Assembly: GCA_963798485.1 (NCBI GenBank) | Contig: CAWCTR010000007.1 | Location: 448,001 to 512,000 of the forward strand | Direction of reading: 5' to 3' | DNA from: an uncultured delta proteobacterium | Lineage (GTDB): Bacteria > Desulfobacterota > Desulfomonilia > UBA1062 | DNA: 64,000 bases | In this document: positions 18,888-59,044 of the stretch, piece by piece | Layout of the letters: every line of letters starts with the position of its first letter | Numbering within the stretch: the first letter of the stretch is position 1 | Notes under the pieces: model-generated | What the model saw: the letters and a program-made list of their open reading frames with translations, nothing else | The model's database searches: none | Told to the model about the DNA's origin: nothing | Program-made: the position numbers and the translations under genes

Positions 18888-20346
18888 ATGAGCAAGCTCA
18901 TGAACGCTAAAGAGTATGAAGAGAGTTTGAGGAAGCTGAAGCTGAACGTGTACATGTTCGGCAAGAAGGTGGAGAACGTGGTGGATGACCCTATCATAAG
19001 GCCCTCCATGAATGCGGTGGCAGCCACCTACGAATTTGCCCACAGGCCGGAATATGAAGATATCATGACCGTCAAATCACACCTTACGGGCAAGAAGATC
19101 AACCGCTTCACCCATATCCACCAGAGCGTGGATGATTTGGTGAAGAAGAGCAAGATGGGAAGGCTTCTGGGGTCTCTGACCGCCTGCTGTTTCCAGCGTT
19201 GCGTGGGAATGGATGCCATGAATGCCCTGTCTATTGTTACCTATGCCATCGATCAGAAATATAAGACGCAGTACAACAAGCGCTTCCTCAAATTTCTCGA
19301 ATACGTTCAGGAAAACGACCTGGTCTGCGACGGCGCCATGACCGATACCAAGGGCGACCGTTCCCAGCCCCCCCACAAACAGTTCGACCCTGACATGTTC
19401 CTCCATGTGGTAGAAGAGCGTAAAGACGGCATCGTGGTCAGGGGGTCGAAGGCCCACCAGACCGGCGCGGTCAACTCCCATGAGATCATCGTGATGCCGA
19501 CCATCACCATGCGGGAAGAGGACAAGGATTATGCAGTGGCCTTTGCAGTCCCCAGTGATACAGCAGGCATCACCTACATCATGGGCCGGCAGTCCTGCGA
19601 CACCAGGAAACTCGAAGGCATGACCATGGATAGGGGCAACATGTTCTACGGAGGCCACGAGGCCCTGGTCGTCTTCGAGGACGTGTTCGTGCCCTGGGAG
19701 ACGCGTGTTCATGTACAAGGAGTATGACTTCACCACCCAGTTGGTGGAGAGCTTCTCCGCCTACCACCGCCAGAGCTACGCATGCAAGGTGGGGGTGGGC
19801 GATGTGCTTATCGGCGCTGCCCAGACCGTTGCCGAGTACAACGGTGCAGAGAAGGCCTCCCATGTGAAAGACAAGATCATCGAGATGAACCACTTGAACG
19901 AGACGCTCTTCTGCGGGTGCATTGCCTGCGCATCAGAGGGTCACAAGGAGGCGAGCGGGACATACCTGGTGGATGTGCTCCTGGCCAATGTGCACAAGCA
20001 GAACGTGACGCGCTTCCCCTATGAGATCGCCAGGCTTGCCCAGGATATTGCAGGCGGCGTAGTGGTCACCTGCCCGTCGGAGGCCGACCTTAACTCGCCG
20101 GTGGTGGGTAAGTGGGTGAAGAAATACTACCGGACCAAGGCGGATGTCCCCACAGAATACCGGATGAGGATATTGAGGCTTATCGAAAACATCACCATGG
20201 GTACCGCTGCCGTAGGTTACCTCACCGAGTCCATGCATGGTGCGGGCTCACCCCAGGCACAGCGGATCATGATCGCAAGGTTCGTGAACATGAAGCAGAA
20301 ACAGAAGGTTGCCAAGTACCTGTGCGGGATCGAGACGGAAAGATAA
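18888..20346 (+). pseudogene. abfD: 4-hydroxybutyryl-CoA dehydratase (HpaB-like family) split by a single +1 frameshift
   Basis: CFQRCVG, GAMTDTKGDR, GSKAHQTG, YHRQSYAC, HGAGSPQAQ; extra base at ~19701. Confidence 0.85.
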
Positions 20347-32073: not shown

Positions 32074-32334
32074 CTAATCATCATATGGACCGAGAAAACG
32101 CTCACCGTTGAAATGTATTAAATGAGTTGGAGACTCAGCAACCCACACTTCCGTTTCCCAAGATATATCATCAAGATATTTCACCATGGTTCTTCGATCA
32201 AGAAAGGCAGTCACATATACAAGGCCGACCTTTGACCCGGCAAATAGGTTCTTCAATTCCTCCCTACGCTTGGGGTTTACTGGTCCGTGGCTGGTAACTG
32301 CTTCTATCAGGACAAGCCATTTATTCTCTGTATA
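32074..32334 (-). pseudogene. C-terminal fragment of BsuBI/PstI-type restriction endonuclease
   Basis: WLVLIEAVTSHGPVNPKRREEL...YVTAF...ISWETEVWVAESPTHLIHFNGERFLGPY; no N-terminus or methylase. Confidence 0.85.
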
Positions 32335-32565
32335 ATAGGAGAGTAGAGAGCAAATGTAGAAAAATTGTCCTTATGTAAATATCCATTTGCTCTTTTCCTT
32401 GCCTGATATATTATAGCCTACATTATGTGATAGACCTTTTCAAGGTCATTTGAAGATGGTCGGAACGGAATAAAAAAGTGCCAGGGCTGTTTGACCCGGG
32501 GGAATAGTAGGTGCCCCTTTCTTTTTCAAAACTAATAGTTATTAATTCAGATAGGGGAGAAATAG

Positions 32566-32922
32566 ATGACGACAATAACAAACATTTTTGTTGGTCTAGT
32601 GGCCCTTCTGCACGTCCACTTCCTTGTACTCGAGATGTTTCTCTGGGACAAACCTTTCGGCCTGCGGACCTTCGGCCTTACACCCGAGTTCGCTTCCGCC
32701 TCAAAGTCGCTCGCAGCGAATCAAGGCCTGTACAACGGATTTCTGGCTGCTGGGCTTGTATGGGGCTTGAGCCTGGGCGTTGCAGGAAACCCGATCAAGC
32801 TTTTCTTCCTTGGTTGCGTTATTATGGCCGGTGTGTTTGGAGGGTTAACCGCAAATCGAAAGATCCTCTGGGTTCAAGCCCTCCCTGGTGCCATAGCGTT
32901 CGCCTTGGTGTTGTTGTCTTGA
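32566..32922 (+). CDS. DUF1304 membrane protein
   Basis: LEMFLW, LAANQGLYNGFLAAGL, VQALP. Confidence 0.92.
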   Translation: MTTITNIFVGLVALLHVHFLVLEMFLWDKPFGLRTFGLTPEFASASKSLAANQGLYNGFLAAGLVWGLSLGVAGNPIKLFFLGCVIMAGVFGGLTANRKILWVQALPGAIAFALVLLS

Positions 32923-32974: not shown

Positions 32975-33286
32975 CTAACAGCAGGTTGAATTACCGGCAT
33001 TGTCCGTATCGCACCCGCACCCGCAAACCGGGGCAGTGCCCCTTAGCATGCCATTGAGGATGGCATAGGCGCATCCGACCCCTTGCTGTACCGTGATGGC
33101 GAGCGCCGGGCAGTTCTTGCTGCAGGCCCCGCACTCCATGCAGGCATCAAGATCCGTGATAACGGCCTTCTTCTTTTCGAGGGCGAACACCCCGTGCGGG
33201 CACACCTCTGTGCAGGCCCCGCACCCGGTGCAGCGCAAGGGATCAAGCTGTAATGTGGAAATGTTCTTCAGATATCGCATGCTCAT
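32975..33286 (-). CDS. hgcB: Mercury methylation ferredoxin HgcB (start 33286 or 33280)
   Basis: MRYL, CTGCGACTEVCP, CMECGACSKNCP, GVGCA, terminal CC; directly after hgcA. Confidence 0.95.
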   Translation of the reverse strand: MSMRYLKNISTLQLDPLRCTGCGACTEVCPHGVFALEKKKAVITDLDACMECGACSKNCPALAITVQQGVGCAYAILNGMLRGTAPVCGCGCDTDNAGNSTCC

Positions 33287-34371
33287 GTCAGTGCCCCTAT
33301 AAGTACATTCACCCCAAGCAGAAGGAGGCCGCATATGCCCAAGGCAGCCATCGGCCTGGCGAACAGGCCGATCTCCCTGTTCACCCCGGTCTGGGAGGTG
33401 AACGTGCTGCTCCCGGTAAAGTTCAAGGCCAGAAAGGCGGAAATGGCAGGCAGCAAGAGGAGATTGCCCAAAAACGGTATCATGCCCCAGCCCTGGTACA
33501 GGCCGACGGCCAGGGTCCACAACAAACCCATACCCCAGCCCTTCAGTGCGAAGGATCGGGGCGGTATCCACGGAAGCAGCACGGGTACGCCGATGGTCCC
33601 CAGCAGCAGCGCACCCAGGAGCGGGAGCGTGGATGACACCATATGTGCCAAGGTCAGATTGCCGGCAAACCATTTCCAGCCTGCAACTACGCAGAGCAGG
33701 ATCAGAAAGTATTTCATCACCATCACGAGCTCTATGGGGATAACGGCAACCCTGTCCCACAGATCGAACCTCACTGTCCTCATGGCGGAAGTCGCCTGCA
33801 TGTTGTTTTTCAGGAAGGGCTTGAGGTCGTGCGCCCTGACCGGACCGAAGACCACCCTGAAGCCGGTCATTGCCTTGATGGAATGTCCTGATATGCCGGG
33901 GGCACCGAGCTGGGGCAGAATGATGGTCTTGTGCGAGACAACATCCTTCAGGCGTGTTGCCTCGATGCGCCTTGCCAGCTCATCCGTTCCAAAGGTGCCC
34001 TTGCCGGCCGCACACCAGACATTGACGCCCTTGGTGTCAAGTACCAGAACCCAGGTGTCCAAGTTGCTGAGCTCTTTGCGGAGCGCATCGAAGGAGGGCT
34101 TGTAATTGGCGGTTGCCAGTACGATAGCCTCCGGGCCTGGATTGCCCACCGCATAGAGGCCGGGCTGCACCTGAAGCGCATCCCTCCTGATCCCCCACCT
34201 GGCCTTCAAGTGCTCTATTGTGTCCTTAAGCACGAGCTGTGTCCCTATGAGAGCAATAGGACCCGTGGATGCCTGATGGATGCCTGTCACCCACCTGCCG
34301 CTCGGCATGACAGGCATAACCTTTTCCTGAATGCTTCCAAAGGATGCTTGTCCGGAGCAGCATGTTTTCAT
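33283..34371 (-). CDS. hgcA: Mercury methylation corrinoid protein HgcA
   Basis: Cap helix NVWCAAGKGTFG, PGLYAVG, LPQLGAPG, FGPVRA, TM domain, FTGSSTFTS. Confidence 0.96.
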   Translation of the reverse strand: MKTCCSGQASFGSIQEKVMPVMPSGRWVTGIHQASTGPIALIGTQLVLKDTIEHLKARWGIRRDALQVQPGLYAVGNPGPEAIVLATANYKPSFDALRKELSNLDTWVLVLDTKGVNVWCAAGKGTFGTDELARRIEATRLKDVVSHKTIILPQLGAPGISGHSIKAMTGFRVVFGPVRAHDLKPFLKNNMQATSAMRTVRFDLWDRVAVIPIELVMVMKYFLILLCVVAGWKWFAGNLTLAHMVSSTLPLLGALLLGTIGVPVLLPWIPPRSFALKGWGMGLLWTLAVGLYQGWGMIPFLGNLLLLPAISAFLALNFTGSSTFTSQTGVNREIGLFARPMAALGICGLLLLGVNVLIGALT

Positions 34372-34847
34372 GTGAGACCTCCACAACTATTTGAACTATT
34401 TGCACAGCATATGCCGTCACGTTTCTGCGCGAGGACCTCGGACAGCCGCCTGACTGCTTTCATGATGGATGCCTGCCCCCCGGGGACTAGGTGAAAGAGA
34501 TCGTGATAGAAGCTGTCGCAAGCGCTGTTGATCTCGTCGGCCTTCTTTTGCCCATGAGCCGTGAGCTTCACCTCAACAAAGCGCCGGTTCACCGGGTTGA
34601 TCGTGCGCCCCACATACATATCGCGCACGAGTGAGTCCACGGTCCTGCTTAGGGTGCTCGTGTCGAGCCTGAGTCTCTTGGCCAGGTCCACAATGCTTGT
34701 AGTGCCCATGTCGTCCAATTCCATGAGCACATGGCATTGGGCCATGGTCACCCCGCAGCAATCGGACTGATTCTTAAGCTGATACTCCACTTCCCGCTCG
34801 ATCTCCCGTATGTATCTCCTGAATTCCCTGATCAAGGCACTATCCAT
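34368..34847 (-). CDS. MarR family regulator with Cys-Cys pairs
   Basis: CCGVTMAQCH, LDTSTLSRTVDSL, NRRFVEVKLT; ATGA overlap with hgcA. Confidence 0.9.
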   Translation of the reverse strand: MDSALIREFRRYIREIEREVEYQLKNQSDCCGVTMAQCHVLMELDDMGTTSIVDLAKRLRLDTSTLSRTVDSLVRDMYVGRTINPVNRRFVEVKLTAHGQKKADEINSACDSFYHDLFHLVPGGQASIMKAVRRLSEVLAQKRDGICCANSSNSCGGLT

Positions 34848-34873
34848 CCAGGCCTCCAATGATATTTGCAATA

Positions 34874-34902
34874 GATGTATAATACATCAATTGTATTGTC
34901 AA
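34874..34902 (-). promoter_or_regulatory. marR-hgcAB promoter with palindromic operator
   Basis: TTGACA at 34902-34897; GATGTAT-A-ATACATC at 34874-34888 over the spacer/-10. Confidence 0.7.
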
Positions 34903-34979: not shown

Positions 34980-34994
34980 CTATCAATCTAATAG
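34980..34994 (+). promoter_or_regulatory. Candidate Rrf2 box 1
   Basis: CTATCAATCTAATAG downstream of TTGACA (34951). Confidence 0.65.
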
Positions 34995-35089
34995 TGATAA
35001 TAGATATTCTTGTCAAAGGGCAGAGCGCCTTAAGCAATGGAGAATAGGAAAAAGCATCGCTGATAGACTGTTTCTCAAGAGGTATCCCT

Positions 35090-42163: not shown

Positions 42164-42863
42164 TCAGGCAAAACCATAATTCGCTATCTTCTCGATGTTA
42201 TGAACCATGCAGTACAGCCTTCTCCTTGAAGTAATCCGGACAATGTCCGATACTCACCATGTTCTCCCTGGCACCATCCAGCATCGGGGGTACGTGACCG
42301 TGATCCTGCCCATTCCCGAACGCCTCCGCCTCCATCAGAAATTCCTTTACCTTCTCCTCAAGCTTCATCTGCTTCCTCTTCAGGTCATCAACCGATCCGC
42401 TCCACTGCGTGGATGCGTTACCCGGAAGCTTGCACCCATCCAATGCAAAAAGCGTCCCCCCGAGCAGTTCCATCTCCTCGCAGATCAGCAGCACATCACG
42501 GAATAGAGGCAGGATATCCTCCTTCATGGAGACAACGAAGGTTGCTATCGTGCTACGGTCCGGATACTGGCCGCTGCTCAATGCCATGAACTCCACGTTC
42601 TCCCGGCAGGCTTGCTCGATCTTCCTCGATGATATCAGTCCCCGTGAATACCCCAGCAGCACTACCTTCAGCAGAATCCGGGGATCGTATGCGCGTCTCC
42701 CCATATCATCATTCCGGTACTTCCCATCGAACAGGCTCATATCCATCCGCTCGTCCACAAGCGTGCAGATCGCATATTCAAGGCTCCCGGGCATGACCTG
42801 TTCCTGCAGAGAAATAGGTATCAATAAGTTCTGTGCGAATTCGTTCGGCTTGTACCTTGCCAT
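42164..42863 (-). mobile_element. IS1182-family transposase relic with internal deletions
   Basis: MARYK, YDPRILLKVVL, SSRKIE, ALDGCKL; jumps to out-of-frame terminal LYCMVHNIEKIANYGFA*. Confidence 0.85.
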
Positions 42864-42918
42864 CAGTCCATCCTTTTCCCTGAAATCGGGGAGATGGATA
42901 GCTTGTCCTGCCCCTATC

Positions 42919-43197
42919 AAATCCCTCAGAGAACCCGTCCGTCAGGAGCTTTTAAAATACCTGATGCTGAACGGACGCTCCGATATCGGGACGATTGCAC
43001 AGCACCTTCCCCAGGATCGCTCGGTGATATCCCGGCATCTTCAGCTCATGCAGGAGGCCGGGATTCTGATTTGCGAGAAGGAAGGCAGGTTTGTGTATTA
43101 CTCCATTAACGGTCCTGAATTCCTTGCAAAGCTCGAATCCCTGGTCGACCAGGTGAGGGCATGCATCCCCATCTGCTGCCCGCCAGGTGTTGTATAA
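42919..43197 (+). pseudogene. ArsR/SmtB regulator lacking its N-terminus (abuts the IS)
   Basis: KSLREPVRQELL...RSVISRHLQLM...EGRFVYY...CIPICC. Confidence 0.75.
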
Positions 43198-44649: not shown

Positions 44650-45261
44650 TTAACCTATCTGAGGACTGGAAAACAAGCCTTGTTCACGGCTCTTGAAAAG
44701 CCATGTGGACAGATAACGCTCTCCCGTGTCAGGGAGGATCACCACAATGAGCTTGTCCTAATTTGTATCGTCCCAGATCTCTTCGGCCGTGGTCCTGCGG
44801 TGGGTATCGGGGTTTGCAGGGTTTTCGAACTGCTGGAACATGACGGCATTGGGCACTGTCTGAACAAGCTCTTCCGCCTTCCTTATCGCGCCTTCCATTC
44901 CTTGATCATCAGGGGTCAGGATGTAATCGGCCCCGAAGATTTTCACGAGCTTCCGCCTTTCCATGCTCACGGTATCCGGCATGACCAGGATAAGGCGATA
45001 CCCGCGTGCGGCAGCGATAAAGGCCAGGGCTATGCCGGAATTGCCGCTCGTGGGCTCGATGAGGATTGAGTCTTTGTTCAGCAGCCCTTTCTTTTCTGCA
45101 TCGTCAATCAGGGCGAGGCCCGTACGGTCTTTGATACTGCTGAGCGGATTGAAAGATTCGAGCTTGGCAACAACCCCGGCCCGGCTACCCTTGGCAATGC
45201 GGGAGAGCCAGACCAGGGGCGTGTGCCCGATGGTCTTGGTGATATCCTCGTAGATATTCAT
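44650..45261 (-). pseudogene. cysK: Cysteine synthase with internal deletion
   Basis: MNIYEDI...SIKDR...EPTSGN...EEIWDDTN* directly followed by [21 protein letters not shown]; GTGGT region missing. Confidence 0.85.
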
Positions 45262-45347
45262 CTTGTTTTTCTGCTCAAGACGTGTAGCGCGGGAAACGTG
45301 ATATGGGGGCCATGGAAAATCGACCCCCATGGTTTCCTTCTCCAGCC

Positions 45348-46292
<945 letters not shown>

Positions 46293-46319
46293 TTTGCTGC
46301 GCGTCTGCAGGACTCTCCC

Positions 46320-46421
46320 CTACATGGGCACCCCCCATTCCCTTAAGCGGCACATACACATGCAGCAGCACATGTTCGCGTCTGCAGATGCAGTATGATG
46401 AGTAGGTCTTGCCAAAAGCAT
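46320..46421 (-). CDS. Cys/Met-rich leader peptide (33 aa)
   Basis: MLLARPTHHTASADANMCCCMCMCRLREWGVPM*; RBS GAGG upstream; immediately precedes terminator. Confidence 0.85.
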   Translation of the reverse strand: MLLARPTHHTASADANMCCCMCMCRLREWGVPM

Positions 46422-46454
46422 GTATCGCCTCGTTGATTTTAATAACTACTATTA

Positions 46455-46469
46455 CTATCTAAAAACTAG
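46455..46469 (-). promoter_or_regulatory. Candidate Rrf2 box 2
   Basis: CTATCTAAAAACTAG; TTGACA on minus strand at 46494-46489. Confidence 0.6.
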
Positions 46470-46635
46470 ATAAAAAAATACCAAAGGCTGTCAAGCATAA
46501 AAATGAAAAAATCTTTCAAGGGCCGGGGGCAGGTATCCTTTAAAGGCAAAGAGGTGGTTTATCTGTGAGGCAGCGAGATGGTGAAATACATCATGGCCGG
46601 GAATATTCTTGACAAGATTTCATGACCAATAATAC

Positions 46636-46650
46636 CTAGTAAATCGATAG
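46636..46650 (+). promoter_or_regulatory. Candidate Rrf2 box 3
   Basis: CTAGTAAATCGATAG; TTGACA at 46609. Confidence 0.7.
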
Positions 46651-46704
46651 TGAATAGAGTGATGTATGTACGCAGGCTTCAGCAATAACTAAGGAGGTTA
46701 CCAG

Positions 46705-47847
46705 ATGAAATTCGAGACACGTGCAATTCACGCAGGCCAGGGCCCTGACCAGGCCTATGGCGCTGTAATGCAGCCTATCTATCAGGTGTCCACGTTCGCA
46801 TACAAGGGCGTGAAGCAGATGGGACCCTTTGATTATTCCCGTTCCGGCAACCCCACACGTAAGGCCCTGGAGGACTGCATCGCATCGCTGGAAGGCGGCA
46901 CGTACGGCTTTGCCTTCGGAACCGGTATGGCGGCTGAGACCACGGCGTTGACACTGCTTTCCGCCGGGGACCATCTCATCGTCCATGACGACCTCTACGG
47001 CGGCACCTACCGCCTGTGCAGCAGCGTTGTTGCCCGGCAGGGCGTTGATGTTCAATTTGTGAACCTCAGGGACCTCGATGCCTTGAGATCGGCCATCAAG
47101 CCCAATACCAGGCTCATCTGGACCGAGACCCCCACGAACCCACTCATGAACATCCTGGACCTGGCCGCCATTGCAGAGATAGCCAAGGCAAAAGGTGTGC
47201 TCACCCTATGCGATAACACGTTCCTGTCTCCCTATTTCCAGAATCCGCTGGCCCTCGGGATAGACATGGTGCTGCACTCCACGACAAAGTACATCAACGG
47301 CCACTCGGATGTGGTGGGCGGGGCCATCGTGGTCGATGAACCCGAACTTGCCAAGCGGTTGGCCTTCCTTCAGAATGCCCTGGGCACCTGTCAGGCCCCC
47401 TTTGACTGCTTCCTTGTGCTCCGGGGGCTCAAGACCCTGGCCGTGCGGATGGAGGCCCACAACAGAAATGCATTAACGATCGCGCAGTGGCTCGAAAGAC
47501 ACCCGAAGATAGAAAGCGTCCTTCATCCGGGTCTTGAAAGCCATCCACAACGCGAGCTGGCATCAAGGCAAGCCCGCGGGTTCGGCGGTACGTTCTCTTT
47601 CAAGGTCAAGGGCGGTGAGGACGAGGCCTTCCGGCTTCTGGCAAACGTGAAGCTCTTTATCCTTGCAGAATCATTGGGTGGGGTGGAGTCGCTCATCGAG
47701 CACCCATGGACCATGACGCATATGTCCATGCCCGAGGATGCGCGCTCCGCTGCCGGCATCACCGGTAACCTGATCCGCATTTCTGTGGGCATCGAGCATG
47801 TGGATGATCTTATTGCCGACCTGGAGCAGGCATTTGAGAAAGTCTAA
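46705..47847 (+). CDS. Cystathionine gamma-synthase/lyase family PLP enzyme
   Basis: YSRSGNPTR, ETPTNP, DNTF, HSTTKYINGHSD, LAESLGGVES. Confidence 0.93.
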   Translation: MKFETRAIHAGQGPDQAYGAVMQPIYQVSTFAYKGVKQMGPFDYSRSGNPTRKALEDCIASLEGGTYGFAFGTGMAAETTALTLLSAGDHLIVHDDLYGGTYRLCSSVVARQGVDVQFVNLRDLDALRSAIKPNTRLIWTETPTNPLMNILDLAAIAEIAKAKGVLTLCDNTFLSPYFQNPLALGIDMVLHSTTKYINGHSDVVGGAIVVDEPELAKRLAFLQNALGTCQAPFDCFLVLRGLKTLAVRMEAHNRNALTIAQWLERHPKIESVLHPGLESHPQRELASRQARGFGGTFSFKVKGGEDEAFRLLANVKLFILAESLGGVESLIEHPWTMTHMSMPEDARSAAGITGNLIRISVGIEHVDDLIADLEQAFEKV

Positions 47848-47853
47848 TCGCGA

Positions 47854-48831
47854 TCAGATCTTTGGCAGCCCGGTATCGTCGTACAGTCCCTCGAAGAGCA
47901 CACCGCTCAAATACCGTTCACCGGAATCCGGGAGGATGGCGACAATGGTTTTCCCTTCGAATTCCTTGAGGCCGGCCAGCCTGAGGGCCACTGCAATGGC
48001 TGCACCGCAGCTGATGCCCGAAAGGATTCCTTCCTCTCGTGCCAGCCGCTTGGCATGGGCGATGGCCTCCTCACTGGTTACCTTCTCCACCCGGTCCACC
48101 ACTGACAGATCGAGGGTATCCGGGATGAACCCTGCCCCGATGCCCTGAATTTTGTGGGGCCCCGGCTTGATCTCCTGGCCTGCCAGGTGTTGGGAAATGA
48201 CCGGACTCTCTGTGGGTTCAACGGCCACGCTGATGATCTTCTTTTTCTTAACATTTTTGATATAGCGGGAAATGCCCGTGATCGTACCGCCGGTACCCAC
48301 GCCCGAGACGAGCACATCAATCTTACCGAGAGTCTGTTCCCAGATCTCAGGCCCTGTGGTCTTGAAATGGACATCCGGATTGGCAGGGTTCTTGAACTGC
48401 TGGGGCATGAAATATTTAGGGTCGGATGCCGCAATCCGCTCCGCCTCGGCAATGGCCCCCTTCATCCCGGCTGGGCCTGGAGTCAGGATGATGTTGGCGC
48501 CAAAGATTGAGAGGACCTTGCGGCGCTCGAGGGACATGGTCTCGGGCATGGTGACATGGAGTTTATATCCCCGTGCCGCAGCCACATAAGCCAGGGCGAT
48601 GCCCGTGTTTCCGCTCGTGGGCTCGATGATCTCCATGCCAGGCTTGAGTGAGCCGTCTTTCTCTGCTGCCCAGATCATGTTGGCGCCGATGCGGCATTTC
48701 ACCGAATAGGCAGGATTGCGTCCCTCTATCTTGGCTAAGATGGTGGCTTTAAGCCCTTTGGAAAGCCTGTTGATCTTAATTAGTGGTGAATTCCCGATTG
48801 ATAATGTGTTGTCGTCAAAAAATGTGCCCAT
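47854..48831 (-). CDS. cysK: Cysteine synthase A
   Basis: [41 protein letters not shown]. Confidence 0.96.
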
Positions 48832-48919
48832 AAAGGCCTCCTTAGGAAAGCTGTCTATTATTGTTATCTTTTTTTAAAAACCCTTTTATAACCGTTGGTT
48901 ATTTTAATAACTAGTAACT

Positions 48920-48934
48920 CTATCGATAAGATAG
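48920..48934 (-). promoter_or_regulatory. Candidate Rrf2 box 4 overlapping cysK -10
   Basis: CTATCGATAAGATAG; minus-strand TTGACA-17-TACTAT (48959-48931). Confidence 0.75.
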
Positions 48935-49012
48935 TAAATAAAACACTGTAGCTTGTCAACTGAAAAATAAGAGTTAGATACACCCTTGACAAGGGGTGTA
49001 GACGATAATACA

Positions 49013-49027
49013 CTAGTTTATCGATAG
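49013..49027 (+). promoter_or_regulatory. Candidate Rrf2 box 5 overlapping rrf2 -10 (autoregulation)
   Basis: CTAGTTTATCGATAG; TTGACA-17-TACACT (48986-49014). Confidence 0.75.
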
Positions 49028-49052
49028 TAATTAAAGTAATTCGAGGGATCAT

Positions 49053-49493
49053 ATGAAACTATCTACTCGATCACGGTACGGGGTGCGGCTCATGCTCGAT
49101 CTGGCGCTGAACAGCACCAAAGGCTCGGTGTTTCTCAAGGATATCGCCAAGGAAGAGGAGATCTCGGAAAAATATTTGAGTCTTATCATCATCCCCTTGA
49201 AGGCTGCCGGTCTCGTCAACTCCATGCGCGGGGCCCACGGCGGATATACCCTTGCAAAGCCTGCATCGGACATCACGTTAAAGGAGATTGTGGATGTTCT
49301 CGAAGGGGAAACCTGTCTTGTGGACTGTGTAAAGAACCCTTCTGCATGCTCACGCTCCGATACCTGCGCAAGCAGAGATCTCTGGACCATCCTGAGCGAC
49401 AATATATCCCAGACACTCGGCTCCGTCACCCTGGATGACCTGGTCAGGAAGAGCAGGGAAAAGGGCCTGAGCGGCGCGATGTACCACATCTAG
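49053..49493 (+). CDS. Rrf2 family regulator (IscR/CymR-like, Cys-containing)
   Basis: MKLSTRSRYG, ISEKYL, RGAHGGYTLA, DCVKNPSACSRSDTC. Confidence 0.95.
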   Translation: MKLSTRSRYGVRLMLDLALNSTKGSVFLKDIAKEEEISEKYLSLIIIPLKAAGLVNSMRGAHGGYTLAKPASDITLKEIVDVLEGETCLVDCVKNPSACSRSDTCASRDLWTILSDNISQTLGSVTLDDLVRKSREKGLSGAMYHI

Positions 49494-49516
49494 GAAGGTG
49501 AACCAAAGGAGAAACA

Positions 49517-50425
49517 ATGGGAATCGTTGAGAAGATCATAAAGCTCAAGAGGGAAAGGAATGCAATTATTCTTGCCCATAACTACCAGCTTCCCGAGGTT
49601 CAGGACATTGCCGATTTCGTGGGTGACTCGCTTGGTTTAAGCATCCAGGCGGCAGGTACCGATGCCCAGGTGATCGTGTTTTGCGGGGTCCATTTCATGG
49701 CCGAGACCGCCAAGATCCTGTCCCCCCGGAAGACCGTTCTTATCCCGGACATCCATGCCGGATGCCCCATGGCGGACATGATCAATGCGGATCAATTGCG
49801 CGTGATGAAGGCCGAGCACCCGAACGCAACGGTATTGTGTTATGTGAACACCACTGCCGAGGTAAAGGCCGAGTGCGACCTGTGCTGCACATCCGCCAAT
49901 GCCGTGAGCATTGTCAAAGATGTCATGAAGGAAAATAAAGAAGTCATCTTTATCCCGGACAAGTACCTTGCGGATTATGTGTCCACCGAGACCGGGTACG
50001 ACCTTATTACCTGGAAGGGATACTGCCCCACGCACGCCAGGATCCTGCCTGAACACATTCTCTCGCAGAAAGACCTGCACCCTAATTCCGTTGTCCTGGC
50101 GCACCCCGAGTGCACCCCAGGGGTGAGGATGCTTGCCGACAAGGTCATGTCCACCGAGGGTATGTGCTGGTATGCAGGCGAGATGAAGGACAAGGAATTC
50201 ATTGTGGCGACCGAGGTGGGCATCCTTCACAGGATGCGCAGGGATAACCCTGATAAAACCTTCTACCCTGCCTCGGACATTGCGATCTGTCCGAACATGA
50301 AGCTCATTACCTTAGAAAAGGTGTTGTGGGCGCTTGAGGAGATGCATGACGAGATCACCTTGCCCCGTGAGACAATAGCCAAGGCGAAGAAGTGTATTCA
50401 GAGGATGCTTCTCTACAGGGTATAA
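49517..50425 (+). CDS. nadA: Quinolinate synthase
   Basis: LAHNYQ, FCGVHFMAE, GCPMAD, CPTH, HPEC, CPNMK. Confidence 0.97.
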   Translation: MGIVEKIIKLKRERNAIILAHNYQLPEVQDIADFVGDSLGLSIQAAGTDAQVIVFCGVHFMAETAKILSPRKTVLIPDIHAGCPMADMINADQLRVMKAEHPNATVLCYVNTTAEVKAECDLCCTSANAVSIVKDVMKENKEVIFIPDKYLADYVSTETGYDLITWKGYCPTHARILPEHILSQKDLHPNSVVLAHPECTPGVRMLADKVMSTEGMCWYAGEMKDKEFIVATEVGILHRMRRDNPDKTFYPASDIAICPNMKLITLEKVLWALEEMHDEITLPRETIAKAKKCIQRMLLYRV

Positions 50426-50461
50426 CATATGGATTCAAAGTAAAGAGAAAGGAGTGATAGC

Positions 50462-51742
50462 ATGAGTAAGATCGATCAGCATTTAAAGACGGAATCGCTG
50501 CTGCTCCACGGCGGCCAGGAGTCTGACCCCACCACCGGGTCGCGGGCTGTCCCCATATATCAGACCACCTCGTACCAGTTCAGGGATACGGACCATGCAG
50601 CCAACCTCTTCGGCCTGAAGGAATCCGGCAACATCTATACCCGCCTCATGAATCCCACCACCGATGTACTGGAAAGGCGCATGGCGCTCATCGATCACGG
50701 CATCGGTGCCCTGGCCGTGGCCAGCGGCCAGTCGGCAATTACCCTGGCCCTGCTGAACATCGCCCGGGCCGGAGATGAGATCGTGTCCATGGACAACCTC
50801 TACGGTGGCACCTACACCCTCTTCCATCACACCTTCAAGCGCATGGGCATCGAGGTGAAGTTCATCAAGTCCAATGACCTGGATGCACTGAAGAAAGCCA
50901 TTACGCCGAAGACCAAGGCCGTATACGCCGAATCCATAGGAAACCCCAAGCTCGATGTGGCCGATCTCGAAGGCATTGCCCGGATCGCCCATGACAACCG
51001 TATCCCCTTTGTTCTTGATAATACGGTATCCCCATACCTGCTGAAGCCCTTTGATCACGGGGTGGATATCACGGTGTACTCGGCCACCAAATTCATCGGC
51101 GGCCATGGGACCTCCATCGGCGGTATCATTGTTGATTCCGGCAAGTTCGACTGGGTCGGCGGGAAGTTCCCTTTGATCACTGATCCTGATCCCAGCTATC
51201 ACGGGCTTAACTTCTTTGACGCACTGGGAAGCCAGGCCTATATCATCAAGGTAAGGGTCACATTGCTCCGCGACCTTGGACCGGCACTGTCCCCCTTCAA
51301 CTCGTTCCTCTTCCTCCAGGGCCTGGAGACATTGCACCTGCGCATGCCCAGGCACTCGGAAAACGCCCTGGCAGTGGCAGAGTATCTGGAAAAACACCCG
51401 AAGGTGGCCTGGGTCAACTACCCAGGGCTCACATCAAGCCCGGAATATCCGAAGGTGAAGAAGTACCTCACCAAGGGTGCCGGCGCCATTATCGGCTTCG
51501 GCATCAAGGGCGGGGCCGAGGCGGGAAAGAGATTCATCAATTCACTTAGCCTTGTGTCGCACCTGGCGAACATCGGGGATGCAAAGACCCTTGCCATACA
51601 TCCGGCAACGACAACGCATCAGCAGCTCTCGGCAGCCGAACAGCTCGCCACCGGGGTAACGCCTGATTTCATCAGGCTCTCCATCGGCATCGAGCACGTG
51701 GATGACATCATTGCGGATATCACTCAGGCCCTGGGTGCATAG
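50462..51742 (+). CDS. metY: O-acetylhomoserine sulfhydrylase
   Basis: [34 protein letters not shown]. Confidence 0.94.
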
Positions 51743-51821
51743 TGCAGGAACGGATCTAGTCGTTATGGAAAAGAAGGGTGCCCACCCGTTCAGGGGTGCC
51801 ATGCATGAAAGGATAACGGCC

Positions 51822-52757
51822 ATGATCTATAACGATATTACCGAGACTGTGGGAAATACTCCCCTAGTACGGATAAATCGTATGGCTCGAGGCATCGATG
51901 CAACCATCCTGGCCAAGATCGAGTCCTTCAACCCGCTTTCCAGTGTGAAGGATCGGATCGGCGTGGCAATGATCGAGGCTGCCGAAAAGCAGGGGCTTCT
52001 GAACAAGGATACGGTTATCATCGAGCCCACCAGCGGTAATACCGGCATCGGCCTGGCATTTGTTGCAGCAGCCAAGGGGTACAGCCTGATCCTCACCATG
52101 CCCGAGACTATGAGCGTGGAGCGCAGACAGCTCCTCGAGATCCTTGGGGCAGAGATTATCCTCACCGAGGGGTCAAAAGGGATGGAAGGGGCAGTGGAAA
52201 AGGCCGAAGAGTTGGGGCGTGAGATAAAGAACAGCTTCATACCCCAGCAGTTCAGGAACAAGGCAAACCCGGAAATACATCGGAAGACCACAGCCGAGGA
52301 GATCTGGAAGGATACGGACGGGAAGGTGGATTACTTCATTACCGGGATCGGGACCGGTGGGACCATCACAGGGGTGGGCGAGGTCCTGAAGTCAAGAAAA
52401 CCATCGGTCAGGATCATCGGTATCGAGCCTGTTGATTCGCCGCTCCTTACTTCGGGTAGGTCGGGATCCCATAAGATACAGGGCATCGGGGCAGAGTTCG
52501 TGCCTGAGATATTGAACAGGGATGTCCTGGATGAGATCATCCTCGTAAGACATGAGGATGCAGGTAAGACAGCACGAAGCCTCGCCAGGCAGGAGGGGAT
52601 CCTGGTGGGAATATCGAGCGGCGCCGCCATGTGGGCCGCACTCGAGGTGGCAAAAAGAACCGATGCCAGGGGCAAGACTATTGTCGTCCTGCTGCCGGAC
52701 AGCGGGGAGCGGTACCTTTCAACGTGGCTGTTCCATACCGGCAAAGAGAATAAATGA
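51822..52757 (+). CDS. cysK: Cysteine synthase A
   Basis: [41 protein letters not shown]. Confidence 0.96.
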
Positions 52758-53252: not shown

Positions 53253-54524
53253 TTGTTGACCATGCCCGCAGCAGCAAGGTTATTGGGAGGTCTTGTCTGT
53301 ATCGTCCTTATGTACTCGGGCTGCGCCTTTGGGGGGGACCCTCCGGCACTGTTGGAAGACCTCATCACAAAGGCCCTGAATAACAGCCCGGAAATCAAGG
53401 CTGCCGAGGCCAAGGCAGCCGCCGCAGCCCAGAAGGCGCCCATGGAAGGGAGCCTCATGGACCCCATGCTCTCCGTCGGGTATCAGAACGAGGGATTCAA
53501 GCAATATACCTACGGCCAATCCGTTGATGCACAGTGGATGTTCTCCCTGGCCCAGACCTTCCCGTGGCCGGGCAAGCTCGCACTGCAGGAAGAGGCCGCC
53601 GTCCTGGAGGCAGAGGCCGAGAATGCCTCTGCCGATCAGGTGCGGCGCGAGGTCAGACTGAAGGTAACCCAGGCATACTATGACCTTGTCCTGATCACCA
53701 AGGAACTGGACCTGATCAGGACACGGATGCCGCTCATCGAGCAGATGGAGGACATCGCGCTCAAGCGTTATGCGGCAGGCACGCTCACCCAGGATGAGGC
53801 GCTCATGGCCCAGGCCGAAAAATATATGCTCATGGAGGCCGAAGAAATGACGCAGGGCAGGAGGGAATCCGCCGAAGCCATGATCAGGCAGGCCATGGGC
53901 AGTACGGATACCGCACCGCTCGGAAGGCCGGTGGAAACCTTGCCTACGGCCTTCGCGTACACGGCTGATGAGTTGATAGACCGGGCAAACCGGGAATCAC
54001 CCGAGATCCGCATGCGTGAAAAGCTTCTGCTCGCATCCGACCAGAGGGTTGAAAGGTCCAAGAAAGAAGCCTTGCCGGACGTCACGGTCATGGGGAAGTT
54101 TTCGAGCCGTGGAGGTGACCTGGGGAATATGGCCGAGCTCACCTTCAGCGTGCCGCTGCCCCTGTACTACAAGAACAGGCAGGGCGCAGGGATATCCGGG
54201 GCATCCTTCTTGAACGCAGGCGCCCGGAAAGATCTTGAGGCGTCCAGGTTCAAGGCCGCTTCCGAAATCAGGGACAACCTCGCCATGATTCATGCAGCAG
54301 ATCGCATCATGCAGCTCTACCGGAATGCCCTTCTCCCCAAGAGCAGGCAGGCCATCGACGCTGCACTGGCCTCCTTCTCATCGGGAAAACTGGAGGCATC
54401 CATGGCCCTGGCCAAGCTGAAGGCGCCGTTCGACTACGAGCTCACGGCCTGGCAGCAGCAGGTTTTGAGAGAGAAGGCCATAGCCCGGATCAAGGTTATG
54501 ACCGGTGATATGGAGGCCAAGTGA
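53253..54524 (+). CDS. TolC family outer membrane efflux protein (CusC-like)
   Basis: ALNNSPEI, QTFPWPGK, VPLPLY; first of a TolC-MFP-RND triad. Confidence 0.9.
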   Translation: MLTMPAAARLLGGLVCIVLMYSGCAFGGDPPALLEDLITKALNNSPEIKAAEAKAAAAAQKAPMEGSLMDPMLSVGYQNEGFKQYTYGQSVDAQWMFSLAQTFPWPGKLALQEEAAVLEAEAENASADQVRREVRLKVTQAYYDLVLITKELDLIRTRMPLIEQMEDIALKRYAAGTLTQDEALMAQAEKYMLMEAEEMTQGRRESAEAMIRQAMGSTDTAPLGRPVETLPTAFAYTADELIDRANRESPEIRMREKLLLASDQRVERSKKEALPDVTVMGKFSSRGGDLGNMAELTFSVPLPLYYKNRQGAGISGASFLNAGARKDLEASRFKAASEIRDNLAMIHAADRIMQLYRNALLPKSRQAIDAALASFSSGKLEASMALAKLKAPFDYELTAWQQQVLREKAIARIKVMTGDMEAK

Positions 54525-55702
54525 TGAAGATAAATCGCTCCTCCGTTGCAGGCATTCTTATCGTTATAGTGATTGCAGCGGCTGCCGGGTATGCGGTTTT
54601 GAAAAATGGCAGACATGCCCCGGGGAATATGCAGGGCCATGTGCACGGATCTGTCCCTGCGACAGCACAAGGCGCTGCAGCTTCCGACGCGGAGGCCCCG
54701 GCCGTGGAGATCCCCGAGGATGCCCAGAAGCTCATCGGCGTGAAGACGGCCTCGGCCCAAGTGGTGGACATGAACAAGACCATCCGTCTGACCGGCCGCA
54801 TCGACTACGACGAGAAACTGCTCTTCACGGTGAACGCCAAGGTTGAAGGGTATATCGAGCGGCTCTATGTGGATTATACCGGAAGGTTGGTAAAGAAGGG
54901 CGAGCCCCTTATAGAGATCTACAGCCCTGACCTGCTCGCGGCACAGCAGGAGCTCATCAGCCTGTCCCACTGGAAGAAGTCTGAAGGGGCCTCAGGGGTG
55001 GAGGGCATGCTCGACGCCGACTCGGAGAAACTGAAGAGCGCTGCCAGGCAGCGGCTGCGGCTCTGGGACATCTCGGATGCCCAGATCGAGAGGATCGTCA
55101 AGACAGGCAAATCCGAGAGGACCCTGACCATTGCAAGCCCGGCCTCCGGTTATGTGGTGAAGCGCTATGCCACAAGAGGCATGCGGGTCATGGCAGGCGA
55201 GCCCCTGTTCGACATCGCGGACCTCAGCAGGGTGTGGGTGGTCTCCCAGGTGAGCGAGGCCGACATGGCCATGGTGAAGCCCGGCTTGGAGACGAGCATC
55301 ACCGTGACAGGCCTGGCCGGAACGATAATGAAGGCCCGCATCGATTATGTCTACCCGGTGATCAATGAGCAGACACGGACCCTGGAAGTAAGGAGCTCGC
55401 TCGCGAATCCCAAAGAGATACTCAAGCCCCAGATGTTTGCCACGGTGGAGATCTCTGTGGGCCTCGGTAAAAGGCTTGCCGTGCCCGAGGATGCGGTCAT
55501 GGATACAGGTGAGCGCCAGGTCGTGTATATGGACAGGGGTGAAGGCATGTTCGAGCCCCGAGCGGTGACGAGTGGCGTCCGTGCTGGAGGCAGGCGGGAG
55601 ATCATATCGGGCTTGAAGGTCGGCGAGAAAGTGGCCGCCTCGGCCTTGTTCCTCATCGATTCCGAGGCCCAACTCAAGGGCGTGGCACCGGTGTCCAAGT
55701 AA
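54521..55702 (+). CDS. cusB: RND periplasmic adaptor (CusB-like)
   Basis: GYIERLYV, YSPDLLAAQQE, IADLSRVWV, LFLIDSE. Confidence 0.88.
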   Translation: MMKINRSSVAGILIVIVIAAAAGYAVLKNGRHAPGNMQGHVHGSVPATAQGAAASDAEAPAVEIPEDAQKLIGVKTASAQVVDMNKTIRLTGRIDYDEKLLFTVNAKVEGYIERLYVDYTGRLVKKGEPLIEIYSPDLLAAQQELISLSHWKKSEGASGVEGMLDADSEKLKSAARQRLRLWDISDAQIERIVKTGKSERTLTIASPASGYVVKRYATRGMRVMAGEPLFDIADLSRVWVVSQVSEADMAMVKPGLETSITVTGLAGTIMKARIDYVYPVINEQTRTLEVRSSLANPKEILKPQMFATVEISVGLGKRLAVPEDAVMDTGERQVVYMDRGEGMFEPRAVTSGVRAGGRREIISGLKVGEKVAASALFLIDSEAQLKGVAPVSK

Positions 55703-55743
55703 TACAATTGAGATACATATGGTGAACAGAACATGTGTACGGA

Positions 55744-55855
55744 CCCCTCACCCCAACCCTCTCCCCATAAACGAAATGGGGAGAGGGGGTTACAAAGAAG
55801 GAGTCTTGTGGTTCAAGTCCCCTCTCCCCTTGCGGGAGAGGGACCGGGAGAGGGG
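55744..55855. repeat. Inverted pair of BoxC-like palindromic repeats
   Basis: CCCCTCACCCCAACCCTCTCCCC...GGGGAGAGGG and CCCCTCTCCCCTTGCGGGAGAGGGACCGGGAGAGGGG. Confidence 0.75.
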
Positions 55856-55876
55856 ATTTCACCATGAGGCATATCC

Positions 55877-58800
55877 ATGATTGAAAAGATCATCGACTGG
55901 AGCGCGAGAAACAAGTTCCTCGTTATCCTGCTGGTCATGTGCGCACTCCTTTGGGGCGCCTGGGCCATCAAACATACCCCCCTTGACGCCATCCCGGACC
56001 TCAGCGATACCCAGGTGATCATCTACACCGAGTGGCCGGGACGCAGCCCAGACCTCGTGGAAGACCAGATCACCTATCCCATCTCGGCCACGCTGCTCGC
56101 GGCACCAAAAGTCCAGGCGGTGCGCGGGTTCTCCTTCCTCGGGTCATCGTTCATCTATGTGGTCTTTGACGAGGGTACGAACATCTACTGGGCCCGCAGC
56201 CGGATCATCGAGTACCTCCAGGCGGTCAAGAACAAGATACCCGAAGGCGTCAACCCGGTGCTGGGCCCCGATGCCACGAGCCTGGGCTGGGGTTTCACCT
56301 ATGCCCTGGTGGATGAGAAGGGCCGGCACAACCTCTCAGAGCTCCGCACCATCCAGGACTACACGGTCAAGCTCGCCTTGGAGAGCGTGCCGGGCGTGTC
56401 CCAGGTGGCCTCTGTGGGCGGGTTTGTGAAACAGTACCAGGTGAATGTCGACCCCATCCGGCTCAAGTCGTACAACATAGCACTCACCAAGGTTATGGAT
56501 GCCATAAGGAGGAGCAACCTGGACGTGGAGGGAAGGGTGCTCGAGCTCTCGGGCGCCGAATACATGATCCGCGGTCGGGGCTACCTCAAGGGTATCGCGG
56601 ACCTTGAGAACGTACCCGTGGGCGTGGATACGCTCGGAACACCGGTCCTTCTCAAGAACATAGCCTCGGTTCAGCTCGGCCCGGAGATCAGGCGCGGCCT
56701 CGTTGACCTCAACGGCAAGGGCGAGGTGGCAGGCGGCATTGTGGTCGTGCGCTTCGGTGTCAATGTGCTCGACGTCATCGAGCGGGTCAAAGACAAGATC
56801 GCGAAAGACATCGCCCCATCGCTTCCCCCAGGCGTAAAGCTCGTGGTCACCTATGACCGCTCCGACCTTATCTACCGGAGCATCGACACCTTGAAGGGCG
56901 AGATCATCAAGTTGGCGCTTGCCGTAAGCGTGGTCTGTCTCGTGTTCCTCTTCCATTTGCCCAGCGCCCTGGTGGTGATCCTCACCCTGCCCTTCGCCAT
57001 CATCATGTCCTTCATCTGCATGTATTACCTGGGCATAACCTCGAACATCATGAGTTTAAGCGGCATTGCCATAGCAATCGGCGCCATGGTGGATGCCGCC
57101 ATCATCATGGTGGAGAATGCCCACAAGCGGCTCGAAGAGTGGGATACCTCGGGCAGGCAGCGAGCGCGCCTCGATGTAATCGTTGATGCCGCCAAAGAGG
57201 TCGGGCCATCGCTCTTCTTCTCGCTGCTCGTCATAACGGTGGGCTTCCTGCCGGTCTTCACCCTGCAGGAGCAGGCGGGAAGGCTCTTCAAGCCCCTTGC
57301 TTTCACCAAGACCTTTGCCATGCTCTTCTCCTCGCTGCTGGCCATAACTCTCACCCCCATGCTCATGACCCTGTTCATCCGCGGCAAGATCTCCCATGAG
57401 GACCATAATCCCATAAGCCGCTTTTTACGCTGGGTCTACGGGCCTCTGGCAGGGTTTGCCCTGAGGTTTCCGTCAGGGGTTATCATCGCTGCGCTGATCA
57501 TCATGGCCATAACGGTTTACCCCATCATGAAGCTCGGCAAGGAGTTCATGCCGCCCTTGAACGAGGGCACGCTCTTCTACATGCCCGTAACCGTGCCGGC
57601 GCTATCCATATCAGAGGCCAAGAGGCTCCTTATTATCCAGGACACCCTCATCAAGCAGGTGCCGGAGGTTCAAAGCGTCTTCGGAAAGGCGGGCAGGGCC
57701 GAGACGCCGACCGACCCGGCGCCGCCCGAGATGTTCGAGACCGTTATCAACCTCAAGCCCGAGGACCAGTGGCGGCCGGGCATGACCATTGAGAAGATCA
57801 AGGACGAGCTTAATGACAAGCTCACCATCCCGGGCGTTGCCAACTCCTTCACCATGCCCATCAAGGCGCGCATCGACATGCTCTCTACCGGCATCAGGAC
57901 ACCCGTTGGCATCAAGGTTTTGGGCAGCGACCTTTCTCAGATCGAGCGGATCGGCAAAGACCTGGAGAAGGCCTTGCGCGATGTGCCCGGTACCAGAAGC
58001 GTCTATGCCGAGCGGGCCACCACCGGGTATTTCCTGGACATCACCATCAAACGCGAGGCTGCGGCGCGCTACGGCCTGGGCGTCCAGGACGTTCAGGATG
58101 CGGTGGAATCATCCATCGGGGGCATGAACCTCACGACGACCGTGGAGGGCAGGCAGCGCTACCCGGTGAACCTGCGCTATGCCCGTGAGCTGAGGAACGA
58201 CATCGATAAGCTCAAGGACGTCCTCGTGCCGGTCATGGCAAGCCCTGCCCCCGGGGGTACGGCCATGGGGGCGGCTACCGGGCCGACAGGCGCCATTGCT
58301 TGGATACCCCTGTCCGAGCTGGCGGATGTGCGCGTCGTGCGCGGTCCCACCATGGTAAAGAGCGAGCAGGGCCTGCTTGCCGCCTATGTATACATCGACT
58401 TCTCCGGACGTGACGTGGGCGGCTATGTCTTAGAGGCCAAGCAAAAGGCCGCCACGGTGAAGGTGCCGCCCGGCTACCGGCTGGAATGGAGCGGCGAGTA
58501 CGAATACCTCCTCAAGACCCACGAGAGCCTCAAGCTCGTCATCCCGCTGACCCTGTTCATCATCTTCGTGCTCATCTACCTCAACACCAAATCCATAGCC
58601 AAGACGGTCATTGTGCTGCTGGCCGTGCCGTTTTCGCTGGTGGGGTCCTTCTGGCTGCTCTATCTGCTGGGTTACAACCTGAGCATAGCCGTATGGGTCG
58701 GCATCATTGCCCTGGCAGGCCTGGACGCCGAGACCGGTGTGGTCATGCTCCTTTACCTGGACCTGGCCTATGAAAAATGGAAGTTCGAAGGCAGGCTCAC

Positions 58801-59044
58801 AGGCCTGGCCGATCTGAAGGGGGCGGTCATGGACGGCGCGGTCAAGCGCATCAGGCCCAAGATCATGACCGTAAGCGTCATCCTGGCTGGATTGGTGCCC
58901 ATCATGTTCAGCTCAGGCACCGGTGCCGACATCATGAAGCGCATCGCCGCACCCATGGTGGGAGGCGTCCTCACTTCCACCATCCTCGAGCTGCTCATCT
59001 ACCCGAGCATCTACTATTTGTGGAAAGGCAGGAGATTGAATTAG
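55877..59044 (+). CDS. cusA: CusA-type heavy metal RND transporter
   Basis: DAIPDLSDTQV, GAMVDAAIIMVEN, EFMPPLNEG, MPIKARIDM, RIRPKIMT. Confidence 0.95.
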   Translation: MIEKIIDWSARNKFLVILLVMCALLWGAWAIKHTPLDAIPDLSDTQVIIYTEWPGRSPDLVEDQITYPISATLLAAPKVQAVRGFSFLGSSFIYVVFDEGTNIYWARSRIIEYLQAVKNKIPEGVNPVLGPDATSLGWGFTYALVDEKGRHNLSELRTIQDYTVKLALESVPGVSQVASVGGFVKQYQVNVDPIRLKSYNIALTKVMDAIRRSNLDVEGRVLELSGAEYMIRGRGYLKGIADLENVPVGVDTLGTPVLLKNIASVQLGPEIRRGLVDLNGKGEVAGGIVVVRFGVNVLDVIERVKDKIAKDIAPSLPPGVKLVVTYDRSDLIYRSIDTLKGEIIKLALAVSVVCLVFLFHLPSALVVILTLPFAIIMSFICMYYLGITSNIMSLSGIAIAIGAMVDAAIIMVENAHKRLEEWDTSGRQRARLDVIVDAAKEVGPSLFFSLLVITVGFLPVFTLQEQAGRLFKPLAFTKTFAMLFSSLLAITLTPMLMTLFIRGKISHEDHNPISRFLRWVYGPLAGFALRFPSGVIIAALIIMAITVYPIMKLGKEFMPPLNEGTLFYMPVTVPALSISEAKRLLIIQDTLIKQVPEVQSVFGKAGRAETPTDPAPPEMFETVINLKPEDQWRPGMTIEKIKDELNDKLTIPGVANSFTMPIKARIDMLSTGIRTPVGIKVLGSDLSQIERIGKDLEKALRDVPGTRSVYAERATTGYFLDITIKREAAARYGLGVQDVQDAVESSIGGMNLTTTVEGRQRYPVNLRYARELRNDIDKLKDVLVPVMASPAPGGTAMGAATGPTGAIAWIPLSELADVRVVRGPTMVKSEQGLLAAYVYIDFSGRDVGGYVLEAKQKAATVKVPPGYRLEWSGEYEYLLKTHESLKLVIPLTLFIIFVLIYLNTKSIAKTVIVLLAVPFSLVGSFWLLYLLGYNLSIAVWVGIIALAGLDAETGVVMLLYLDLAYEKWKFEGRLTGLADLKGAVMDGAVKRIRPKIMTVSVILAGLVPIMFSSGTGADIMKRIAAPMVGGVLTSTILELLIYPSIYYLWKGRRLN

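Follow-up and report, generated by a model that had tools for sequence, protein, structure and literature searches.

A cysteine-rich MarR protein as candidate repressor of the mercury-methylation genes hgcAB

We found that, in a 64-kb stretch of DNA from an uncultured delta proteobacterium (64,000 nucleotides, hereafter the window), the mercury-methylation genes hgcA and hgcB follow a gene for a cysteine-rich MarR protein, and that marR-hgcAB is a real and widespread cassette with a definable operator. Comparison with related loci suggests that this MarR very probably auto-represses its operon, hgcAB included. By analogy with a tested sensor, it is rather likely that trivalent arsenic or antimony would be the inducer that releases it, and for the two parts taken together we see a chance slightly better than even. 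The control and native purpose of hgcAB are described as open in the literature, and the arrangement, which occurs in dozens of other species, offers a testable clue to the natural switch of the mercury-methylation genes.

The marR-hgcA-hgcB genes and their relatives

The three genes lie on the minus strand and encode a Cys-rich MarR of 159 amino acids, the candidate repressor (marR, 34368-34847), the mercury-methylation corrinoid protein of 362 amino acids (hgcA, 33283-34371) and a dicluster ferredoxin of 103 amino acids ending in CC (hgcB, 32975-33286). A preliminary description of this DNA had the three genes coupled by ATGA overlaps, and the sequence reads ATGA at both junctions; the overlap at hgcB uses the first of two Met codons, which is favoured by a GGGG stretch 7 nt upstream of it. 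HgcA scored 408.8 bits against NF040863 (cut-off 275), the HMM check that the description had proposed, and HgcB scored 120.4 bits against NF040864 (cut-off 99), while the HgcA-HgcB fusion model NF043039 gave 189.4, under its cut-off of 285, indicating that HgcA is not fused to HgcB. The two motifs cited earlier as diagnostic were both located: the cap helix NVWCAAGK begins at residue 117 of HgcA, and CMECGA lies in the second of two CX2CX2CX3C (4Fe-4S) motifs of HgcB. These are the features named by the high-stringency criteria in the accessible part of PMC10087281, a cap helix with the conserved Cys and C(M/I)ECGA on the contig of hgcA. The C-terminal half of HgcA is hydrophobic, with about four stretches (approximately residues 207-236, 239-270, 296-319 and 334-362) placed by Kyte-Doolittle hydropathy only. 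A CC pair within the first 45 residues was seen in the window HgcA and in 18 of 73 HgcA proteins from the related loci (L001-L080) described below; it could be a metal(loid)-binding tail.

We propose that the three genes would be read as a single transcript from a sigma-70-type promoter immediately 5′ of marR, and that the stop/start overlaps would couple their translation. No terminator was found 3′ of hgcB (fold z 0.17), and Rfam and tRNA searches gave 0 matches. Five flanking genes downstream occur in the same order in the window and in the two closest loci (72-98% identity); the host is presumably a deltaproteobacterial anaerobe. Between hgcB and the next glycosyltransferase gene, at 32074-32922, the window holds a DUF1304 gene and a 60-aa BsuBI/PstI endonuclease fragment; L001 and L002 both lack the DUF1304 gene at this place, suggesting that it is a recent insertion.

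Several features were observed elsewhere in the window. At 18888-20346 there is an HpaB-like gene (4-hydroxyphenylacetate hydroxylase family) that is broken into two overlapping ORFs, and at 42198-43197 an IS1182 transposase fragment stands back to back with an ArsR/SmtB-like ORF ending in CC, possibly an interrupted metalloid sensor. A cysteine/homocysteine cluster at 44758-52757 comprises two intact cysK genes, cystathionine gamma-synthase, an Rrf2 regulator and metY, with a truncated cysK abutting a truncated metY-like gene. Genes for a CusCBA/CzcCBA-type heavy-metal RND efflux system occupy 53253-59044, about 18 kb from hgcAB.

When a 76-sequence alignment was compared with GTDB genomes, 201 relatives of the MarR were found and the best 80 were analysed. 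hgcA directly followed marR in 73 of these best 80 (of 201), with two contigs ending early and five loci without hgcA; this is not a family-wide rate, since the loci are the closest relatives and many of them are kin. The high-stringency cap helix was present in 72 of the 73 marR-hgcA loci and the hgcB motif in 70. By database label, 49 of them belong to Spirochaetota, 6 to Acidobacteriota, 6 to Deltaproteobacteria, 3 to Bacillota, 2 to Thermodesulfobacteriota and 7 to others. The counts are not independent, since they come from the closest 80 of 201, since 64 of the 80 loci matched a pattern that itself contains CC, and since 49 of 73 are Spirochaetota. The family of this MarR comprises 359 clusters at 50% identity (E up to 1e-30).

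In 58 of the 73 loci the marR stop overlapped the closest in-frame start of hgcA, and in 30 the overlap was exactly the ATGA-type -4. Taking the closest start biases this count towards overlap, so what carries weight is the peak at -4. Between hgcA and hgcB, a gap of -4 occurred in only 4 of 73. Furthermore, the MarR and HgcA trees largely agreed (Mantel rho 0.76), with 22 of 28 strong MarR splits recurring and 5 in conflict (70 rows). The truncated L075 was left out of both trees, and L040, L047, L059 and L064 were also left out of the HgcA tree. The hgcA matches of these last four hold stops or are short, and are pseudogenes or assembly errors.

A conserved palindrome at the marR promoter

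Reading of the minus strand upstream of marR gave a perfect -35 hexamer, TTGACA (34897-34902), as part of the likely marR-hgcAB promoter, followed after 17 nt by a likely -10 hexamer, TACATC (34874-34879), which matches the consensus at 3 of 6 positions, and by a ribosome-binding site, GGAGG (34853-34857), 5 nt before the ATG. A consensus promoter scan called no promoter at the marR start and none inside marR. On the plus strand, 34874-34888 reads as the perfect 7-1-7 palindrome GATGTAT-A-ATACATC. The preliminary description had rested its operator on this palindrome; the palindrome is present and covers the likely -10, and taken alone it lies within chance, given that the window holds 10 perfect 7-1-7 palindromes and that the shuffled intergenic region gave one in 76 of 1000 trials. 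Allowing up to 3 mismatches, the palindrome had 2 matches in the window against 2.89 expected. Followed further outwards, the symmetry reaches 12-1-12 with 11 of 12 positions paired (34869-34893), an extent that occurred in 2 of 1000 shuffles in a test picked after the site had been seen. The real support for the palindrome is its conservation in upstream sequences of relatives.

We trained a palindromic matrix on 75 upstream regions, with the window and its three closest relatives (L001-L003) left out. L022 and L032 had been dropped because their upstream regions were short, so that 78 loci were scored, 75 of which were training rows. The matrix showed the core TGYA-N3-TRCA (15.4 bits), and the same core was obtained without the symmetry constraint. 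The survey of loci suggested earlier returned a palindromic motif in nearly all of those scored: a site of at least 8 bits was found in 74 of 78 upstream regions compared with 82 of 3900 shuffles, and only 4 sites of at least 11 bits lay elsewhere in 808 kb. By the same matrix the predicted operator of the window (34873-34889, its promoter-distal arm in the spacer) scored 20.2 bits and ranked first in the 64 kb. The next site, of 13.8 bits, lies at 17534 within a long ORF, and thus no wider regulon was seen in the 64 kb. Positions 16 nt to either side of the operator scored about 0, indicating a single strong site at the marR promoter. An apparent second site at 43188 was an artefact of an off-register width-15 matrix and disappeared with the correct one.

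Among the relatives, the spacing of tandem operator copies was 16 nt in 36 of 40 cases, and sites lay 16, 21-22, 26, 37 or 42 nt from a TTGAC. The window, with 21 nt between operator centre and -35, shows the commonest spacing (24 sites); in this class one operator arm doubles as the -10 box, whose sequence is TACAAT at 14 of the 24 loci and TACATC in the window. DNA likeness to the L001 and L002 upstream regions starts at the -35 element. It could be argued that hgcAB are largely free of MarR control, either because another promoter is used or because the palindrome is the promoter itself. The weak -10 and the -10-like arm TACAAT of the family palindrome would fit this, as would a second candidate, TTGACA-17-TATTAG (34988-35016, minus strand), which faces marR from outside the operator and could allow operator-independent transcription. 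We consider this very improbable: the motif has a symmetric form, recurs at a distance of 16 nt and is also found 16, 26, 37 and 42 nt from the -35, the scan placed no promoter within marR, and the region of the upstream candidate is not conserved in L001 or L002.

Control by MarR is the reading that we retain. In it, a MarR dimer would bind the TGYA-N3-TRCA palindrome over the spacer and -10 box, and the bound protein would repress both marR itself and hgcAB. The auto-repression proposed in the preliminary description appears well supported by comparison, through the linkage of the genes, the operator, its overlap with the -10 and the trees.

The operator most likely belongs to MarR rather than to hgcA, because it is kept without hgcAB and is altered along with the recognition helix. 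Four loci without hgcAB retain it beside marR (L072, L076, L078 and L079), a fifth, L063, scores 7.2, and the three ars-cluster MarRs whose recognition helix is most changed (L081, L082 and L085) have different palindromes. At L076 (5986-9152), the same MarR and operator were seen with a MalT-like regulator gene overlapped in place of hgcA. In five of nine ars-cluster plasmid MarRs the same operator was found (11.7-20.5 bits). L091, introduced below, scored only 4.0 bits, and L088, a MarR with a single cysteine and no ars gene among the 8 neighbours scanned, scored 13.4 bits, suggesting that the operator marks a wider clade and not arsenic. L088 and L090, tried as outgroups, turned out to be relatives bearing related palindromes. 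For the plasmid MarRs L092 and L093, an ars context, a Cys pair and the operator were all lacking.

Cysteines of MarR and candidate inducers

The regulator matched PF01047 at 47.7 bits. Pfam yielded MarR families only and the ArsR-type helix-turn-helix PF01022 was not found, placing the protein outside ArsR/SmtB. Its cysteines are C30, C31, C38, C110, C147, C148 and C155; the CCGVTMAQCH segment and C-terminal CC...C noted at the outset correspond to C30/C31/C38 and C147/C148/C155. Among 79 GTDB MarR proteins, C30 was present in 79, C31 in 78 and a Cys within the last 35 residues in 77, C38 and H39 were found in 79 of 79, and C110 in 65. For 144 proteins found by HMM the corresponding numbers were 135 (C30), 137 (C31) and 117 (tail Cys). 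C30, C31 and C38 are thus nearly invariant, even among proteins retrieved without the cysteine pattern. The subfamily was named in no NCBIfam or PDB entry found, and the Atlas placed it in generic MarR clusters only.

The AlphaFold model of MarR had a pLDDT of 85.6, with the tail 148-159 below 50, and its Foldseek matches were MarR structures. A dimer model scored 0.70 against 0.00 for the best control, beyond a mark that 20 of 30 solved pairs and 1 of 23 single chains attained and that it probably passes by likeness to solved MarR dimers; 92% of its contacts agreed between runs, with pLDDT of at least 80. Helix 1 runs alongside the last helix of the partner (contacts 12-133′, 16-136′ and 19-139′). 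Extending this helix register would, purely by extrapolation, place C30/C31 near C147/C148 of the partner, residues that lie outside the confident contacts, the tail being poorly predicted.

AdMarRars of Achromobacter As-55, a repressor released by As(III) or Sb(III), depends on C36, C37 and C157 (bioRxiv 10.1101/2021.08.12.456183). L091, a protein of a Pseudomonas ars cluster, carries the motif encoded by the primers of that study in a by-eye comparison, and was used as an AdMarRars-type protein, not AdMarRars itself. In an alignment of L091 with the window MarR (24% identity), the CC, QC and C-terminal CC align, and the three cysteines by which MarRars are recognized, an N-terminal pair and a C-terminal Cys, are present in the window protein. 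The locus is not within an ars operon (arsV, arsN, arsP), the other MarRars criterion, and no arsM, arsC, acr3, arsB, arsP, arsN, arsD or arsI was found in the 64-kb window. Neither AdMarRars nor the proteins of the two cultured strains discussed below appeared by name in a second search for homologs. Against the A1 profile, ars MarRs scored 82-151 bits and five comparison MarRs 28-78. In the trees, ars and hgc MarRs did not form one clade; deep support was weak (49/28), long branches met, and the 91-row tree was made by a quick method. Collectively, the window MarR probably works like MarRars by analogy, though it is not classed as a member.

The contexts of the relatives also point to arsenic. 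Of the best 80 loci, 5 have arsM in the operon, either directly after marR, in three Acidobacteriota loci (L063, L078 and L079), or after hgcB (marR-hgcAB-arsM, L004 and L071). Less favourably for arsenic, an ars-type gene lies within 6 kb in only 17 of 80 as a raw count, 8 of which are arsC-like and mostly from related spirochaetes, with a representative scoring 128.9, under the cut-off of 174.3. On plasmids, all five matches H1, H2, H3, H7 and H13 (of 102 in the P0001 search) adjoin ars-type genes. The nine Cys-bearing plasmid MarRs examined adjoin ars-type genes, one of them, L089, only through an ArsV-like oxidoreductase gene. The likeness to MarRars and these arsM and ars contexts narrow the inducer, left in the preliminary description as a metal(loid) or thiol signal, most likely to trivalent As/Sb. 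Binding of As(III), methylarsenite or Sb(III) to C30/C31 and a C-terminal cysteine would release MarR, and hgcAB transcription would rise.

With the same repressor and operator, a soft metal ion such as Hg(II), Cu(I), Cd(II) or Zn(II) could instead be sensed on at least four Cys/His ligands. The conservation of C38, H39 and C110 given above would provide more ligands than the As triad requires, a copA-like gene is nearby in 2 of 80 loci, and the authors of the ND132 study suggested, in the accessible part of bioRxiv 10.1101/2022.10.17.512643, that a site of four Cys might favour Zn, Cd or Pb. Against this, the plasmid neighbours of the Cys-bearing relatives are ars genes, C110 may have a structural role, as it contacts the other subunit in the dimer model, and hgcA is not Hg-induced in ND132, whose regulator differs, so that we regard a soft metal as unlikely. 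C110 is, as judged from the proteins compared, special to hgc-group MarRs, being found in 0 of 8 ars MarRs, and C38 is found in 3 of these 8; ligand specificity may therefore differ from that of ars MarRs.

The cysteines might otherwise form a thiol switch, through a disulfide or persulfide, for oxidants or reactive sulfur, timing the synthesis of the oxygen-sensitive corrinoid/Fe-S pair. E. coli MarR is released by Cys oxidation (bioRxiv 10.1101/2021.08.12.456183), 8 of 80 loci have msrB within 6 kb, and a C-GCAxxG-C-C protein is encoded after hgcB in six loci (L020, L031, L047, L056, L067 and L077) and after marR in one (L072). We judge such a switch to be distinctly unlikely, given that the msrB neighbours are mostly from related spirochaetes, that the C-GCAxxG-C-C protein is also encoded in the Clostridium ars cluster L084, and that the Cys layout matches that of a tested As/Sb sensor. 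Release by trivalent As/Sb remains the reading that we prefer.

Comparison with known systems

When compared with the hgcAB gene pair described by NF040863 and NF040864, the cap helix, the hydrophobic C-terminal domain and the adjacent CMECGA-bearing hgcB are all alike, and the genes are no different; the host here is uncultured, and methylation by it is predicted from the genes. MarRars resembles the window MarR in its MarR fold, the vicinal CC at the end of helix 1 and a C-terminal Cys. It regulates itself and its relatives stand upstream of arsN, arsP-like and arsM genes. It differs in its targets, arsV/arsN/arsP compared with the predicted hgcAB, and in lacking the additional C110. The main text of bioRxiv 10.1101/2021.08.12.456183 gives no operator sequence for it.

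In the literature searched, which included few subscription papers, the accessible part of PMC10349881 was the only source found to join a MarR with hgcAB. For D. alkaliphilus and G. daltonii, one sentence there mentions a MarR ahead of hgcA and describes it as unrelated to the ars operon. These two proteins, encoded in hgcA neighbourhoods as in the window, also show the CCG motif and the C-terminal CC (by eye, supplement), and that part of the source gives no operator, spread or ligand for them. Both strains are in culture and are confirmed methylators, and since they seem to have a MarR of this type, the regulation is testable now. In the accessible text of PMC7438021 an unnamed 'putative regulator' lies immediately 5′ of hgcAB in 112 genomes across phyla including Acidobacteria and Deltaproteobacteria. 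Its position is that of the window MarR and its family is not named in that text; the two may be identical, and the distribution would then have been published before, with neither family nor operator given. The accessible parts of PMC12953829, PMC8060452 and PMC11653729 added nothing on this MarR. The same literature search, few subscription papers being covered, found no report of a MarR operator at hgcAB or of a link to MarRars, and no publication treating hgcA together with promoter, operator, repressor and methylmercury.

A further comparison for control of hgcAB is Pseudodesulfovibrio mercurii ND132, as described in the accessible text of bioRxiv 10.1101/2022.10.17.512643, in which the terms 'MarR' and 'palindrom' do not occur. 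There, As and not Hg changes hgcA transcription (As raises hgcAB), a higher transcript level does not always give more methylmercury, and deletion of hgcAB left arsenic resistance undiminished. One speculative reading is that ArsR2 and a MarRars-like repressor were independently recruited to hgcAB in many phyla, as two unrelated sensors of trivalent arsenic, because the native job of HgcAB would be arsenic or organoarsenical chemistry and mercury methylation a side reaction. We hold this to be rather unlikely. If it were true, marR-hgcAB-arsM and marR-arsM would be variants of a single module, with arsenic as an environmental switch for methylmercury genes in many uncultured methylators.

If arsenic does release MarR, As and Hg cycling would be linked via two unrelated regulators. 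Independently of this condition, marR-hgcAB is a second arrangement for regulating hgcAB, one that is widespread and for which an operator is predicted, candidate ligand residues are named and one inducer is favoured. As in ArsR2-hgcAB of ND132, a Cys-rich regulator is encoded directly 5′ of hgcAB in the window; ArsR2, as that source describes it, belongs to the ArsR/SmtB family and is unrelated to the window MarR, so that an arsenic link of both regulators would be convergent.
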